Of a DNA stretch of 64,000 bases, positions 18,377-49,317 are shown in pieces. The notes below the pieces were generated by a model, which was given only the letters and a program-made list of their open reading frames with translations, ran no database searches and was not told the DNA's origin. The position numbers and the translations under genes are program-made. Where the stretch lies: positions 116,746,001 to 116,810,000 of the forward strand of contig NC_135803.1 in NCBI RefSeq assembly GCF_964213995.1, given 5' to 3'. This DNA is from Mustelus asterias (taxonomy: Eukaryota). Positions within the stretch are counted from its first letter, which is position 1. The number at the start of each line of letters is the position of its first letter.

Positions 18377-18900
18377 ACAGTAAGAAGTTTAACAACACCA
18401 GGTTAAAGTCCAACAGGTTTATTTGGTAGCAAAAGCCACACAAGCTTTCGGAGCTGCAAGCCCCTTCTTCAGGTGAGTGGGAATTCTGTTCACAAACAGA
18501 GCATATAAAGACACAGACTCAATTTACATGAATAATGGTTGGAATGCGAATACTTACAACTAATCAAGTCTTTAAGAAACAAAACAATGTGAGTGAAGAG
18601 AGCATCAAGACAGGCTAAAAAGATGTGCCTGTCTTGATGCTCTCTCCACTCACATTGTTTTGTTTCTTAAAGACTTGATTAGTTGTAAGTATTCGCATTC
18701 CAATCATTATTCATGTAAATTGAGTCTGTGTCTTTATATGCTCTGTTTGTGAACAGAATTCCCACTCACCTGAAGAAGGGGCTTACAGCTCCGAAAGCTT
18801 GTGTGGCTTTTGCTACCAAATAAACCTGTTGGACTTTAACCTGGTGTTGTTAAACTTCTTACTGTGTTTACCCCAGTCCAACGCCGGCATCTCCACATCA
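18377..18900. mobile_element. Penelope pLTR palindrome (two inverted pLTR copies plus a 35-bp tail)
   Basis: Arms 18377-18615 and 18627-18865 are homologous to 1489-1725. TSD-like ttactgcaacta (18366-18377) / ttattgcaacta (18901-18912) lies inside a CR1. Confidence 0.88.
18767..18803 (+). ncRNA. Minimal hammerhead-ribozyme motif (mirror copy on the - strand at 18439-18475)
   Basis: CAC-CTGAAGA-A-GGGGC ttaca GCTCC-GAAA-GC-TT-GTG. Confidence 0.7.
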
Positions 18901-24844: not shown

Positions 24845-25323
24845 GAAAACATAGAAACTAGAGGCAGGAGTAGGCCATTCAGCCCTTTGAGCCTGCTCTG
24901 CCATTCATTATGATCATGGCTGATCATCAAATTCAATAACCTGATACCCCCTTCCCCGCATATCCATTTAGCTCCAAGAGCTATATCTAATTTCTTCTTG
25001 AAATCAGACGACTACTTTCTGTGGTAGTGAATTCCACAGATTCACCACTTCCTGGGTGAAGAGATTTCTCCTCACTCAGTTCTGAAAGGTTTACTCCTTA
25101 TCCTCAAACTATGACCCTAGTTTTGGACACCCCCACCAATGGGAAGACTCTTTCTGAATCTACCCTGTCTAACCCTGTTAGAATATTATAAGTTTCTATG
25201 AGATCCCCTCTCACTCTTCTAAACTCCAGTGAATAATCCTAACCGACATAGTCCCTCCTCAATTGACAGAACTGCCATCCCAGGAATCAGCCTGGTAAAC
25301 CTTCTCTGTCCTTCCTTTGTAGC
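24845..25323 (-). mobile_element. CR1 3' fragment, target of the Gypsy insertion; continues at 30070-30660
   Basis: CR1 tail (catagaaa) and RT C-terminal sequence are contiguous across the LTR element. Confidence 0.8.
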
Positions 25324-25641
25324 TGATGCACATCAATTTAGACACGAGGCTCGAAGCTCAGTAAATGAAGGCTTTTATTTACTATTAATGAAGCTACCAG
25401 AACTTATGTACACTATCCCAGACTGAAGGGGTCCCGGCCAGAGCAGGGACTCTTATACCTCTCCCAGGAGGCGGAGCCCGACTGGGATGTGCCACAACAC
25501 TATCATACAAAGGTGTAACAACCCCACCCTAACCCAACAGCAACAATAGCACAATCCAACAGTAACATATGTACATCCTTGTAGTCCTGGCCAGCCCCTA
25601 GCTCAGCACTATCCAGTGGGAACCAACGATGGTTCACCACA
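25324..25641 (-). repeat. 3' LTR
   Basis: Direct repeat of 29752-30069; adjacent to the PPT. Confidence 0.97.
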
Positions 25642-25704
25642 TTCACCCCTCCTTTGAAAACAATGGCCGGCGGGGTACAAAAACCAGAATAAAATGTCAG
25701 CAAT

Positions 25705-29698: not shown

Positions 29699-29751
29699 AC
29701 TCTCTCTCTTCTTTTTTTCTCCGTCGAGAGTTTAATAATAGTAAATAAAAT

Positions 29752-30069
29752 TGATGCACATCAATTTAGACACGAGGCTCGAAGCTCAGTAAATGAAGGC
29801 TTTTATTTACTATTAATGAAGCTATCAGAACTTATGTACACTATCCAAGACTGAAGGGGTCCCGGCCAGAGCAGGGACTCTTATACCTCTCCCAGGAGGC
29901 GGAGCCCGACTGGGATGTGCCACAACACTATCATACAAAGGTGTAACAACCCCACCCTAACCCAACAGCAACAATAGCACAATCCAACAGTAACATATGT
30001 ACATCCTTGTAGTCCTGGCCAGCCCCTGGCTCAGCACTATCCAGTGGGAACCAACGATGGTTCACCACA
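29752..30069 (-). repeat. 5' LTR with TATAA (29881-29885) and AATAAA (29802-29807)
   Basis: Direct repeat of 25324-25641; motifs read on the minus strand. Confidence 0.95.
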
Positions 30070-30924
30070 GTAGCAAGGACGTCCTTCCTCAGACAATGAC
30101 ACTAAAACTGCACACAATACTCCAGGTGTGGCCTCACCAACACCCTATACAATTGCAGTAAAACATCCCCATCCCTCTCACTTGAAGGCCAACATACCAT
30201 TTGCCTTCTTGACTGCCTACTGTACCTAGACGCTTAGTTTCAGTGACTGATGCCCGAGGGCACCAAGGTCAAGCTGTTTATCCATCTCTTCCAATTTACA
30301 CCCATTCGAGTAATAATCTGTCTTCCTATTATTGCTACCAAAGTGGATAGCCTCACATTTATCCACATTATACTGCATCTGCCATGCATATGTCCACATA
30401 CTCAGCCTGTAAAAATCATGTTGGAGCATCTCGGCCTCCTCCTCACAGCTTCCCTCCGACCCAACTTTGTATCATCTGCAAATTCCATAATAATACATTT
30501 AGTTCCCTCTTCCAAATCATTAATATATAATGTGAACAGTTGGGGTCCTAACACAGATACCTGTGGTACCCCACTAGTCACTACCCGCCAATCAGAAAAA
30601 GACCATTTATGCCAACTCTTTGCTTCCTAGCCACTAACCAGCTTTCTATCCATCTCACGACATCACCGGCAATGTCACAGCTCTAAAGCAAAGGTCAGGA
30701 ATGAACAGTGAGACTTAGGTATTGGGTATTATGGTGACCTTTCAGGTCAGAATTTTACTCATCCCGAGCAGGCACACTTCTGATCTGGAAGTGCATAAAA
30801 TATTCTGTGAAATAACTTGTGATAACATTAGGCGCGCATCCCGATGTCACCTCGCTCTCACACAATATCTTTGTCAGTGGGTGCAGGCTAGTGAGACATT
30901 ACAACAAACTGTAAACATTTCCAT

Positions 30925-32363: not shown

Positions 32364-33594
32364 GGGCCCTATTTTACCATTTTGATTCTAAGTGCTAAGC
32401 GGACTTGAAACTGGGAGTGTTTCAGATCCAACTTTTAGACCCATTCTCAGGTGCCCCCATACGCACTCTGCCTGAAAAAATATCAGCAATTCCGAATCGC
32501 GCTGCAGAAGCCTGTGGGCGGGGCTTAATGCGCCCAAAGTCCTGCAGCTCCGATCGGCGCCTCCAACTGCGCATGCGCAGAAAAAAAAGGATAGAATGCA
32601 GCTCCCCTGTCACATCGCTCCCGGGCCGGATAATGCCTCCTACTGGCCTCCACAGACATTACCCCACCCCCACAACATTACTGACACCCTTATCCCCCCA
32701 CCCCCTCCACCACCAATCATGGGCCCCTCCCCCCTTCCCCCTTACTGATCACAAGCAGAGTGGCAGCAGATCCCCCCTTCCCCCTCTCTGATCACAGGCA
32801 GAGTGGCAGCGGATCTCCCCTTCCCGCTCACTGACCACAGGCAGAGTGGCAGCGGATCTCCCCTTCCCCCTCTCTGATCACAGGCAGAATGGTAGCGGAT
32901 CCCTCCTTCCCCCTCACTGATCACAGGCAGAATGGCAGCGGATCCCTCTTCCCCCTCACTGATCACAGGCAGAATGGCAGCAGAGCCCCCCCTTTCCCTT
33001 TCACTGATCATAGGCAGAGTGGCAGCAGAGCCCCCCCTTCCCCCTTACTGATCACAGGCAGAGTGGCAGAAGACCCCCCTTTCCTCCTCATTGATCACAG
33101 GCAGAGTGGCAACAGACCCCCCCTTCCCCCTCACTGATCACAGGCAAAGTGGCAGCGAACCCCACCCCCTCCTGCCCCCCACCAATCTCAAGCAGAGAGA
33201 CGTTGGACCCACCTCCCCCCAACCCCCACCGATCTCAAGCAGAGAGCCGTCGGATGCTCGGCACTTACCTCCTCACTGGCTGGAGCGCCCAAATTGGACT
33301 TTTGTAGAGCATGTCTGTTTTGCGCTGATTCTGGATGGGCGAAAGCGGTGGTAAAAGGGGAAGTGCCGGTAAGGTTGGGTGTGCAGCCCATTAAATCAAT
33401 TTAAATGCATGCAAATACATTTAAATGGCCGTCGCGCCCGTTTCAGGCACAGTCCTGATCACAGCCATTTTCAGGCCTTGGTAATGTGGGAACTGGCGCG
33501 GAGGCGGACGCGGATCGCGCTATTCACCTCACGCCTGACTTTACCAAGTTTTCATGCCCGAAAACGGGCACAACTTGATGGTAAAATCGGACAT
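32364..33594 (+). mobile_element. PIF/Harbinger-like MITE with a 3-bp TSD (TGA)
   Basis: TIRs gggccctattttacc (32364-32378) / ggtaaaatcggacat (33580-33594); TGA on both flanks. Confidence 0.65.
32740..33160. repeat. Minisatellite, ~43-bp unit x ~10, inside the MITE
   Basis: Unit ctgatcacaggcagagtggcagcggatcccccttccccctca. Confidence 0.9.
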
Positions 33595-45574: not shown

Positions 45575-46162
45575 ATGCCACCTGACTGCTTGGAAGGAAC
45601 CATCGGAAGTTCAGGGGCACAGTACTTCAAATTCAGCTGCCAGGTTAAAAGTATCCACTGATTCAGCCTCCTGTTATCAGATCTCTTCCCAGTTCGAGCA
45701 AATAACCCCAATAAATAACTCTTTGCGTTCTCAACACCTTTATGCCCCATCAGCTCCACTATTAACACTTATAGATAGGCTAATATTTACGTCGTAAATG
45801 CTGTGTTCCCATCTGTTTTAGGTTTGGGTCAGGTTGCCAAGCGAATGTTCTCGAAAACCTCCCATGACCTGCCGACTGAAGGGACCCCAGCTGTAGTGAA
45901 ATGTCAGGGAGTGACTGCTGCAGCTGACAGAAGTTTCTGAAAAGGGAGCTGCTCAGGAGGTTGTAGTGCACAGAAATACTTTGGCACAGGGCTGTGCTGA
46001 ATATAGATCTCCGGCAGCTAGGGGCTGCTGCATTCCTGCTTCAGGCTGCACTGCGAACACTTTCTCCGGGAGGATCGAGGGACTTCACAAGACAGGGACA
46101 GAAAACTCCCAGCTGAAGCCCAAAGTTGCCCAGCGCTCTGTAGCTGCACTCCAGCAAGCACC
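45575..46162 (+). promoter_or_regulatory. Putative LMOD3 promoter / 5' UTR with clustered myogenic E-boxes
   Basis: Repeat-free; CAGCTG at 45634, 45888, 45921 and 46110; weak TATA-like atatag at ~46001; Kozak-like gcaccATG. The TSS cannot be determined. Confidence 0.4.
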
Positions 46163-46450
46163 ATGTCAGACTGCAGCCTCCAGTCCGATGATACAGAACC
46201 CAACAGTGGGGACGAGGACGAAATCCTCGCCACCCTGTCTCCTGAAGAGTTAAAACAACTGCAAAATGAGATGGAAGATCTGGAGCCTGACCCGCTTGTG
46301 CCCTTAGGACAGAGGCAGAAAGATCACACAGACAGAGCGCCCACAGGCTCCTTCGATCACAGGTCCCTGATTGACTACTTGTACTGGGAGAAGGAATCCA
46401 GCCGCCTCTTGGAGGAAGAAAGGGTCCCGGCCACTCTGCTCGACAGTGAG
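46163..46450 (+). CDS. LMOD3: Leiomodin-3, coding exon 1 (tropomyosin-binding N-terminus, 96 codons)
   Basis: [27 protein letters not shown]...[41 protein letters not shown]; donor GAG|GTGAGT, phase 0. Confidence 0.95.
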
Positions 46451-46579
46451 GTGAGTTTTGTATGGGCTGGAGATCTGGCACATCCAGGGAAATGTAACCT
46501 ATTCCCAGTCCTCCCTGGGGACAAGGTAGCAGAGAGTGAATCTGGCTCAGTGAAAGACATGGGGGAAATGGCAAGGCGT

Positions 46580-47055
46580 TAGAAGCAGGTCAATAAAGGT
46601 TTACTAGACTCATCCCAGGAATGGGCCAAGTTAGGTTTGTATCCACTAGAGTTCAGAAGAGTAATTGGCAACTTGATGGAAATCTTTAAAATCCTGAGGG
46701 GTGTTGACAGGGTGGATGTGGAGAGATTGTTTCCTCTTGTCGGAGAATTTAAAATTAGAGGTCGCTGTTTAAACATAAAAGTTCACTCGTTGAAGACATA
46801 GATGAGAAGAAATCGTTTCTCTCAGAGGGGGGTGAGTCTCTGTAACTCTCTTCCTCAAAAGGCAATGGAAGCAGAGTCTTCGAATATTTTTAAGGCAAAG
46901 CTAGATGTGATTCTTGATTAACAAGGAAAGATTATGGAGGAGCGGGGGTAAGCAGGAATGTGGGGTTGAGGTTACAAATAGATGAGCCATGATGGTATTG
47001 AACAGGGTCGAGAGGCCGAGTGACCTACTCCTGATCTGTATGTTCGTATGCTTGT
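46580..47055 (+). mobile_element. CR1 3' fragment in LMOD3 intron 1
   Basis: CR1 RT C-terminal remnant and tail. Confidence 0.75.
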
Positions 47056-47528
47056 ATTATAATGATATTATTTCCATTACTCAATATTCACTCTGAGATA
47101 TTATGACTCTGTCACATAAATGGATCATTTTCCTTTTATTTCTATTTGATGGAGTTTTAGAATGTGATCCATTCTATCGTCCTGTGGAATCTAACCCTGT
47201 GCCTGTGAGGTATACAGTTAGATATATAGTAGAAAATCAGCATGTTCATCCTAGTTGTGTGCGTTAGCTGGTTACACCGTGGTACATTATTAATTCATTG
47301 CCTCATTCAGCTCCCAAAGGAGTTTACATTGTGCCCTGTGACATGCAACAATGGAAATCTTAGTCAAGTGCTGAGAAAGATTTCTAAATGAACCAATTTG
47401 AATCTCTATGGGAGATTTGTCTTAAGTTGTTAGTGACTTTTATACATGAGTTTTATCAGAATTAAGAAACTCTACATTAATAAAAGCAAAAAGAACCCCA
47501 CAAAACTGAAAATCTCTCTTCTCCACAG

Positions 47529-48971
47529 CAAACTTTGGCAAGAAAAACTGAAGAAGAAGCACAAGTTGAAAAGGAGTGCGAGAAAGAAAAGAGTAAAAGT
47601 GAAACAAGAAACAGAGAGAAGAAAGAAGAAGGAAGCGGCAAACACCTGAATGGAAACGGTCAAAGGACTCAAGAAGTGGAAGATGACAAACCAGAGAGCA
47701 AAGAGATCAAGTACAAATCAGAGAAAGAGAAAGAAACGATAGAGGTGATGAAGTCACAGCAAAACAAAGATGTGCCAGTTACTGAACCTGAACCAGAAGC
47801 TGAGGGCAGTAACCAGCCAGAGAGAACAGCAGAGAAGAGCCCAGATCAACACATCAAACAGTGGAAGATTGAAGACACCTTTCCCTTGTGCAACAAGAAA
47901 AAGCTGGATTCCTCTACTGAAGAGCAGTGTGAAGACAAGGAAAGCAAGAAAAGCAGCGAAGAAGAAATTTCTACACCTCCGAAAGAAAGCCAGGAAATTA
48001 CAGAGATGAAAACAAGCAATGGAAAGGCAGGAAAGAAGCTAGAATTGGATAGCAGTTTCCTCAAACTGACTGCAAGACCTTCAGGAAACCCAACGCTTTT
48101 AGATGAGACGCTGGCGGATATTCGCAAAAACAAATCTGACCTTACAGAGGTCAACCTGAACAATGTAGAAAATATCCCTAAAGATATGCTGAAAAGCTTT
48201 GTGGAAGCTTTGAAGAAGAATAAGCACATCACTACATTCAGCATTACTAACACGGGCGCTGATGACGAAATTGCTTTTGCCATAGCCAACATGCTGAGAG
48301 AGAACAAGAAAATTGTAACTCTCAATATCGAGTCCAACTTCATCACAGGCAAGGGCATTGTGGCTATCATGAGGTGCTTGCAGTTCAATGAGATTCTCAC
48401 TGAGTTGAGGTTTCACAACCAGAGGCATATGTTGGGTCACCATGCCGAGATGGAGATCGCCAGACTCCTCAAAGCCAACACTACCCTCCTGAAGTTGGGT
48501 TACCACTTCGAGCTGCCAGGCCCCAGGATGGTGGTCACTAACTTACTGACTCGCAATCTCGATCAGCAGAGGCAAAGGAGGCTGGAGCAGCAGAGAAACC
48601 AGTTTATGCAAGAACAAGAAATGATGGTGAATGCCTGCCAGAAAATCTCCCCTGACCAGCTGGAGATGTTGGGTGAATATGTGCCCAATCTCTCCACCTA
48701 CCATGAAGACTCTCGTCTCCCACCAAACGCCTTTCACAATCGTCCAAAAAGCAACATTCAACGAATACAACTCAGAAAACCTCCCAAAAAACAGAGTAAA
48801 AATAAAGCTGGTCAAGACAGAACAGATGGGAATGACAAGCCAAACCTCAAGGCAATGATAAGGTCACTAAAGCCAGTTCCCAGGAATCGACAAGAACCTT
48901 TAGTTGAAGATACCCCTCGAGACCAGTTGTTAAATGATATTCGTCAGAGCAACGTGGCTTATTTAAAACCT
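47529..48971 (+). CDS. LMOD3: Leiomodin-3, coding exon 2 (E/K-rich linker, LRR actin-binding domain, start of WH2; 481 codons)
   Basis: Acceptor ctctcttctccacag|; ARPSGNPT...EVNLNN...[52 protein letters not shown]; [20 protein letters not shown]|GTGAGT. Confidence 0.96.
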
Positions 48972-49317
48972 GTGAGTAATATTTCCATAAGCTCCCAAGT
49001 GGTCTTTTATACGACCATAGGATCCCCACAGTGCAGGAGGCCATTTGATCCATTGAGTCTGCACCTACTCTGCAAAACAGCATCTTACCCAGGCCCACCC
49101 CCACCCCACCCTCCAGTTTCCAGAACCCCGCATGTTTACCATGCCTAATCCACCTAACCTACACATCTTTGGATCACCCTTCTTTCCGAGCAACACCATT
49201 CAGCTGCCATCAATCATAACTGGTGTCAATTTTCCTTGTGCATTCAAGATTTTTGGTTAATATCAAATTAATTTTCATAACTTTAAAAACGTCAAACATT
49301 CAACTTTAAACATTAAA

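Follow-up and report, generated by a model that had tools for sequence, protein, structure and literature searches.

In the 64,000 nucleotides of the Mustelus asterias genome analysed here (the window), a young Ty3/Gypsy element on the minus strand carries a primer-binding site (PBS) that is not a tRNA match with TGG and is exactly complementary to 15 nt of its own LTR. This signature is common to a compact Gypsy clade of its own, which is abundant in the shark-like host genome and occurs in many other animals, and the clade is likely to self-prime reverse transcription, in whatever form. A narrower proposal is that the primer is cut from the 5' R copy at the junction of a terminal A with a conserved RCC, and for this particular route we see the balance as even. 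Self-priming is a demonstrated mechanism in Tf1, and inferences of it have mainly concerned the chromovirus relatives of Tf1 and one plant copia lineage. If true, priming would have been solved independently in this clade, by a primer that probably lies inside the transcript and often doubles as poly(A) signal.

The element in the window and its relatives

The element has the TG...CA LTRs, target duplication, polypurine tract (PPT) and protease-RT-RNase H-integrase order of Ty3/Gypsy elements (Table 1), and the closest solved structure to its RT is the Ty3 RT. The LTRs, 318 bp each, are unlike at 3 positions, and in this copy gag has a broken 5' start. A Pfam scan of the protein identifies protease, RT, RNase H and integrase, and neither a chromodomain nor a Tf2-type SH3 domain at E<=0.1. 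The first-pass annotation had described the 15-nt self-complementary PBS one base after the terminal CA of the LTR and lacking TGG, a polarity of pairing that suits priming, an AATAAA overlapping the putative primer, a TATAA at 29885, two CCHC knuckles and no evident chromodomain; all of these were recovered from the sequence, its translation or the Pfam scan, the AATAAA lying at 29807-29802 within the paired stretch. The PBS and its LTR partner are 50 nt apart, and the longest match of the PBS complement to the LTR, 15 nt, compares with a best of 10 nt in 2000 dinucleotide shuffles. Around the LTR end the window element has a small hairpin, which some of the sister families share and others lack.

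Table 1. Features of the Gypsy element, in window coordinates
Feature	Position	Strand	Basis or remark
5' LTR, TG...CA, 318 bp	29752..30069	-	sequence
3' LTR	25324..25641	-	sequence
Target-site duplication, upstream copy (GCTAC, 5 bp)	30070..30074	-	sequence
Target-site duplication, downstream copy (GCTAC, 5 bp)	25319..25323	-	sequence
PPT with terminal AA, adjoining 3' LTR	25642..25655	-	sequence
gag-pol, one frame, 1300 aa	25705..29607	-	two CCHC, protease, RT (YLDN), RNase H, integrase
TATA-like box, TATAAG from 29885	29880..29885	-	predicted promoter; kept in 7/7 host-genome families
Initiator-like TCAGTC	29849..29854	-	predicted start 29852, 33 nt past first T of TATA
Candidate self-primer, 5' R copy	29801..29815	-	+38 to +52 from predicted start
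Conserved RCC directly after primer	29798..29800	-	predicted to open second helix
Predicted cut site	between 29801 and 29800	-	prediction
Spacer, single A between LTR end and PBS	29751	-	A in 118/121 anchored loci
PBS, without TGG	29736..29750	-	15/15 complementary to 29815-29801
Primer stretch, 3' LTR copy (alternative primer source)	25373..25387	-	sequence

Elsewhere in the window, a tropomodulin-domain exon is followed by a 554-aa open frame at 46022-49148, about 16 kb from the element, and probably belongs to a leiomodin gene. A frame weakly matching GIY-YIG at 1774-2781 is probably a Penelope-like remnant. A near-perfect inverted repeat of 239 bp, with arms 11 nt apart, lies within a LINE-like stretch (18377-18865), and our guess is that it might be the inverted end of a Penelope-like element. 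An array of 43-48 nt repeats is located at 32686-33254.

The element family is abundant and young in the 3.68-Gb host genome, where a first look gave 3035 candidates and the 40 that were scored are 97-100% identical. Among named proteins, those of sharks and rays are closest (74-82% over RT-RNase H), and farther relatives, at about 59-66%, are found in cnidarians, the nematodes Trichinella and Trichuris, a tunicate (Styela clava) and a sea cucumber. Judged by these protein matches the clade is animal-wide and not vertebrate-specific, and the restriction to vertebrates in the first-pass annotation is not supported. Relatives were collected from the host genome, from JGI metagenomes and from contigs filed under bacterial genomes, the DNA of which is presumably animal. 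The animal-type LTR retrotransposons seen in GTDB bacterial MAG contigs (L184-L195, L197, L198) probably represent host contamination. A loose pattern search of the genome was uninformative, since the reversed control matched more often than the pattern itself (about 757,000 matches). A scan of IMG/VR gave 18 pattern matches of which none was confirmed. At one locus (L056, 3786-8200), a direct-repeat pair is present and the flank past the repeat resembles the complement of the PPT, which suggests that a neighbouring copy from the L038 family has been rearranged or inverted.

Conservation and covariation of the PBS

Of 206 loci searched, 143 have a gag N-terminus and 139 at least 170 nt upstream, and removal of 12 re-fetches leaves 127. 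At least 12 perfect complementary bases between the leader and the upstream sequence are found in 95 of these 127 loci (75/99 from the host genome and 20/28 from elsewhere; shuffled null 1/475), and at least 10 in 101 (shuffled null 4/475), so the complementarity noticed in the window element is conserved among its relatives. The other 26 loci have fewer than 10 perfect pairs; among the part of them that was inspected, several are decayed, have lost part of the LTR or have an uncertain gag start. In L076, L193 and L206 (the latter a re-fetch of L113) the PBS fits the element's own 3' LTR better than its 5' LTR, which points to mutation after insertion.

The duplex begins at +2 from the CA of the LTR, after a spacer that is almost always A (Table 1), and none of the 121 anchored loci has a TGG at the PBS, so a normal tRNA site is not found among the relatives. 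The anchored loci harbor 20 distinct perfect 13-bp duplexes. Duplex length ranges from 12 to 19 bp, variable even inside one family, and the distance from the 5' LTR copy to the PBS is 35-70 nt across families. The paired stretch ends in TAAA(A), with RCC next in most families. As a control, 10 of 14 host-genome loci, all of one other Gypsy lineage, have a TGG site and a self-complement of at most 7 nt, the remaining 4 having yielded no LTR end; the same is the case for three elements with integrase before RT, which also have TGG sites and a self-complement of at most 7 nt.

To score covariation, both sides of the duplex were anchored by motif alone (a T-A anchor), which was possible for 116 of 139 loci and left out 23; the 116 loci form 19 families, with the first member of each taken as representative. 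At six variable positions, 110 of 114 cells are Watson-Crick paired, against 52.1±5.9 when the PBSs are shuffled among families, and 0 of 20000 shuffles, which ignore relatedness, reach 110. Slid registers give 23-42 paired cells. The host-genome families taken separately have 40 of 42 cells paired (reached by 13 of 20000 shuffles) and those from elsewhere 70 of 72 (0 of 20000), and a G-U pair occurs in only one of 190 core cells. Within families there are 14 compensatory cells (7 types) versus 16 broken and 4 G-U, and compensatory cells would arise if the primer is the template of the PBS. For Tf1, about half of the cDNA is described as carrying a copied PBS (PMC11042837, excerpt). The covariation that the first-pass annotation had proposed to look for is thus present, and together with the lack of TGG in this clade and its presence in the other Gypsy lineages tested it supports the central proposal of that annotation, a tRNA-independent self-priming in elements without a chromodomain.

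RNA folding, predicted promoter and possible routes of priming

In 17 of the 19 families, RNA folding predicts the duplex as the dominant structure (P>=0.95). For the window copy the minimum-energy fold is a different one, and the duplex lies 1.6 kcal/mol above it (P=0.22, z=0.49); over 29 copies of the window family the P of the duplex spans 0 to 1. When the duplex is enforced, the three bases past the primer are paired with a mean of 0.80 versus 0.47 in shuffled sequences, a weak control in that it shuffles the G/C-rich RCC too. The pairing of this second helix is at least 0.8 in 13 of the 19 families and below 0.8 in 6, and in four host-genome families the predicted partner of RCC lies close to the LTR end.

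All seven host-genome families have a TATA box and, at a spacing of 31-34 nt, a TCAGTY initiator that lies 46-70 nt upstream of the anchor T of the primer. This fixed spacing predicts a primer located inside the RNA in the window element (Table 1), as had been suggested at first from the TATA-like word alone. The TATA/initiator pair is missing in the 8 other-animal families with LTRs printed, so an internal primer is predicted for the host genome alone. The paired stretch contains AATAAA in 8 families, ATTAAA in 5, GTTAAA in 5 and TTTAAA in 1 (n=19). The overlap of primer and poly(A) signal claimed for the window element therefore extends to 13 of the 19 families and fails in the other 6.

By the route that we put forward, transcription would start about 37 nt upstream of the primer, which would then be internal. 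By analogy with Tf1, the leader would fold back onto the PBS, probably with the help of nucleocapsid. Where the duplex ends, the RNase H of the RT would cleave the RNA after the A-run and just before the conserved RCC, with which a stacked second helix would begin. The resulting capped fragment of about 52 nt would prime minus-strand DNA, and the strong-stop DNA would jump to the 3' end of the RNA via the portion of R that remains from the cut to the poly(A) site. Finally, the PBS would be rewritten from the primer during plus-strand synthesis, and this would account for the speed of compensatory change. The duplex would also bury AATAAA or ATTAAA at the 5' LTR only, in the 13 families that have them, and protection against premature polyadenylation is likely a side benefit of this. 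AA precedes the 3' LTR in 22 of 26 LTR pairs. Should a single ribo-A of the primer stay behind, as in HIV-1, this AA and the spacer A may give two-base ends that are symmetric. The literature searched yielded no demonstration of priming by an RNA that carries a long 5' extension.

The primer could also be taken from elsewhere in the RNA. A strict Tf1-type route, where a second start at the 5' end of the paired stretch would give an RNA whose first 12-16 nt are cut off as primer, is unlikely on the present evidence, even if it can draw on a mechanism demonstrated for Tf1 (PMC7175516, PMC4600332, excerpts) and on the alternative starts of Tf2, one of which alone supports reverse transcription (PMC5341516, excerpt). 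It is consistent with the absence of the upstream promoter pair in the other-animal families and with the presence of TATATAAG about 23 nt upstream of the primer in some copies of the window family (L009, L019, L022); however, this second TATA-like word is not common to sister families, all seven host-genome families keep the TATA box and initiator at fixed spacing well upstream, and the duplex length varies even within a family. That this large, animal-wide clade of YxDN RTs primes from the 3' R copy, a possibility raised in the first-pass annotation, appears rather improbable to us. The poly(A)-signal stretch would anneal to the PBS, be cut after the A-run and so freed of its tail, and prime a circularised genome, a route that, if true, is not described for LTR elements in the literature searched. 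The same stretch is indeed found in the 3' LTR, within R if the predicted start is right, and this route would yield a longer strong-stop DNA and carry a new LTR mutation into the PBS within a single cycle, in agreement with the large number of compensatory variants. On the other hand, the proximity of the 5' copy to the PBS and its local folding with it in most families suggest that it should win kinetically over the 3' copy, and a polyadenylated 3' end would lack the partner of the RCC in the second helix near the LTR end, as predicted in the four host-genome families.

Two further explanations would dispense with self-priming. The duplex might serve solely to hide the 5' poly(A) signal, DNA synthesis being primed otherwise, and this reading, which we hold to be improbable, has in its favor the AATAAA or ATTAAA inside the paired stretch of 13 families and a pairing partner that exists behind the 5' LTR only. 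Against it, six families have GTTAAA or TTTAAA in the paired stretch, and in L032, L034 and L190 another AATAAA or ATTAAA is located downstream, beyond the duplex, so that the pairing tracks the position of the PBS and not the poly(A) signal. Its partner always begins at the PBS position, G-U pairs are nearly absent and no other primer site was seen. Priming by a fragment of a host tRNA or another small RNA, with an incidental match to the LTR, would have a parallel in the half-tRNA primers of copia lineages (PMC6317226, excerpt), and it is highly improbable given that the 20 different perfect duplexes each follow their own LTR. The tRNA match that the first-pass annotation had asked to be looked for does not exceed 9 nt at the PBS among 74 tRNA genes (28 distinct sequences), a very incomplete screen that covers 9 anticodon labels only. 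Self-priming, with a cut at the A-RCC junction of the 5' R copy as its proposed form, would make the clade a clean test of whether the RNase H of an RT can cut out an internal primer, and of whether priming and the choice of poly(A) site are coupled through one duplex.

As a separate observation, the host genome carries large tandem tRNA gene clusters, mainly Lys(TTT) and Thr, at G000:C16:97.2-98.6 Mb (most of L226-L255).

Placement of the clade and relation to known elements

For a quick maximum-likelihood tree, 6 of 53 candidate rows were dropped as too short or for want of a pol match; of the 47 RT cores in the tree, 40 are united on a long branch with an SH-aLRT of 100. Outside this clade are two integrase-first elements, one other, and four proteins that we take to be Mag-like from their motifs. 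The tree includes no chromovirus RT, so the clade is set apart from Tf1/sushi by domain content: no chromodomain or Tf2-type SH3 was found in P0001 and in the four in-clade homologues scanned. A search of the host genome for a chromovirus outgroup returned no sushi element, and gave integrase-first, other Gypsy and retrovirus-like stretches together with chromodomain matches without adjoining pol. The retrovirus-like pol stretches (L172-L178, L286, L287, L291) have other RT motifs. The window element has YxDN in place of YxDD as its RT active-site motif, as do at least 98 of the 138 proteins collected, and a literature search found nothing pairing 'YLDN' with 'reverse transcriptase'. Members with YxDD near the base of the clade also harbor the duplex (15 bp in L055 and L107, 12 bp in L049 and L088), so the trait appears to be ancestral to the clade.

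Tf1 and Tf2 of Schizosaccharomyces pombe, Tj1 of S. japonicus and the Tf1/sushi elements, including Tcn1, likewise have no tRNA site, and share with the present clade a PBS right after the 5' LTR, its complementarity to a stretch of the LTR and a polarity suited to priming. The clade differs from Tf1/sushi by the lack of a chromodomain or Tf2-type SH3, by two CCHC knuckles, by a mostly YxDN RT and by a duplex of 12-19 bp that ends in TAAA(A) and is followed by RCC. In Tf1, RNase H cuts between nucleotides 11 and 12 and the primer is the first 11 nt of the RNA (PMC7175516, PMC4600332, excerpts), whereas the primer of the window element is predicted away from the 5' end and, as often in the clade, overlaps the poly(A) signal. 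Outside the chromoviruses, self-priming was predicted from PBS-LTR complementarity for the plant copia elements TAR/Houba/Osr-1 (PMC6317226, excerpt), indicating that the trick arose more than once; these belong to another superfamily and to other hosts, whereas the domain order of the window element is Gypsy-type. In the excerpts consulted, self-priming is tied to Tf1/sushi, Tcn1 and TAR/Houba/Osr-1 (PMC3601003, PMC6238403, PMC3670739, PMC4600332, PMC6317226, PMC2774666, PMC7175516, PMC5341516, PMC6934838, PMC11042837). No mention of it in the present clade was found in the titles and abstract openings searched; Simmen & Bird 2000, the primary papers of Levin, Repbase, Dfam or GyDB may already note it. 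LTR finders that require a tRNA site would misjudge elements of this clade.

Among other Gypsy lineages, the Gmr1 clade has the integrase upstream of the RT, and the window element has the opposite order. Two CCHC knuckles, a single ORF and short LTRs, which we take as marks of the Mag clade (A/B/C), are all present in the window element, whose gag has weak matches to presumably Mag-like proteins, so labelled from their motifs; the RTs of the clade separate from those of the four Mag-like proteins in the quick tree (SH-aLRT 100). Cigr-1 of Ciona intestinalis combines short LTRs with one ORF of about 1200 aa, and its gag is similar to that of echinoderm Mag-C elements. The clade may be Cigr-1-like, its architecture fitting this description, and like Cigr-1 it is represented in a tunicate, by the Styela clava homologue. 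The CsRn1 clade has a CHCC gag motif and a tRNA-Trp site, and the window element has neither. Its LTR start, TGTGGYG, corresponds nevertheless to the CsRN1 motif (PMC3601003, excerpt), and Cigr-1 is listed in tunicates and molluscs (PMC6238403, excerpt).
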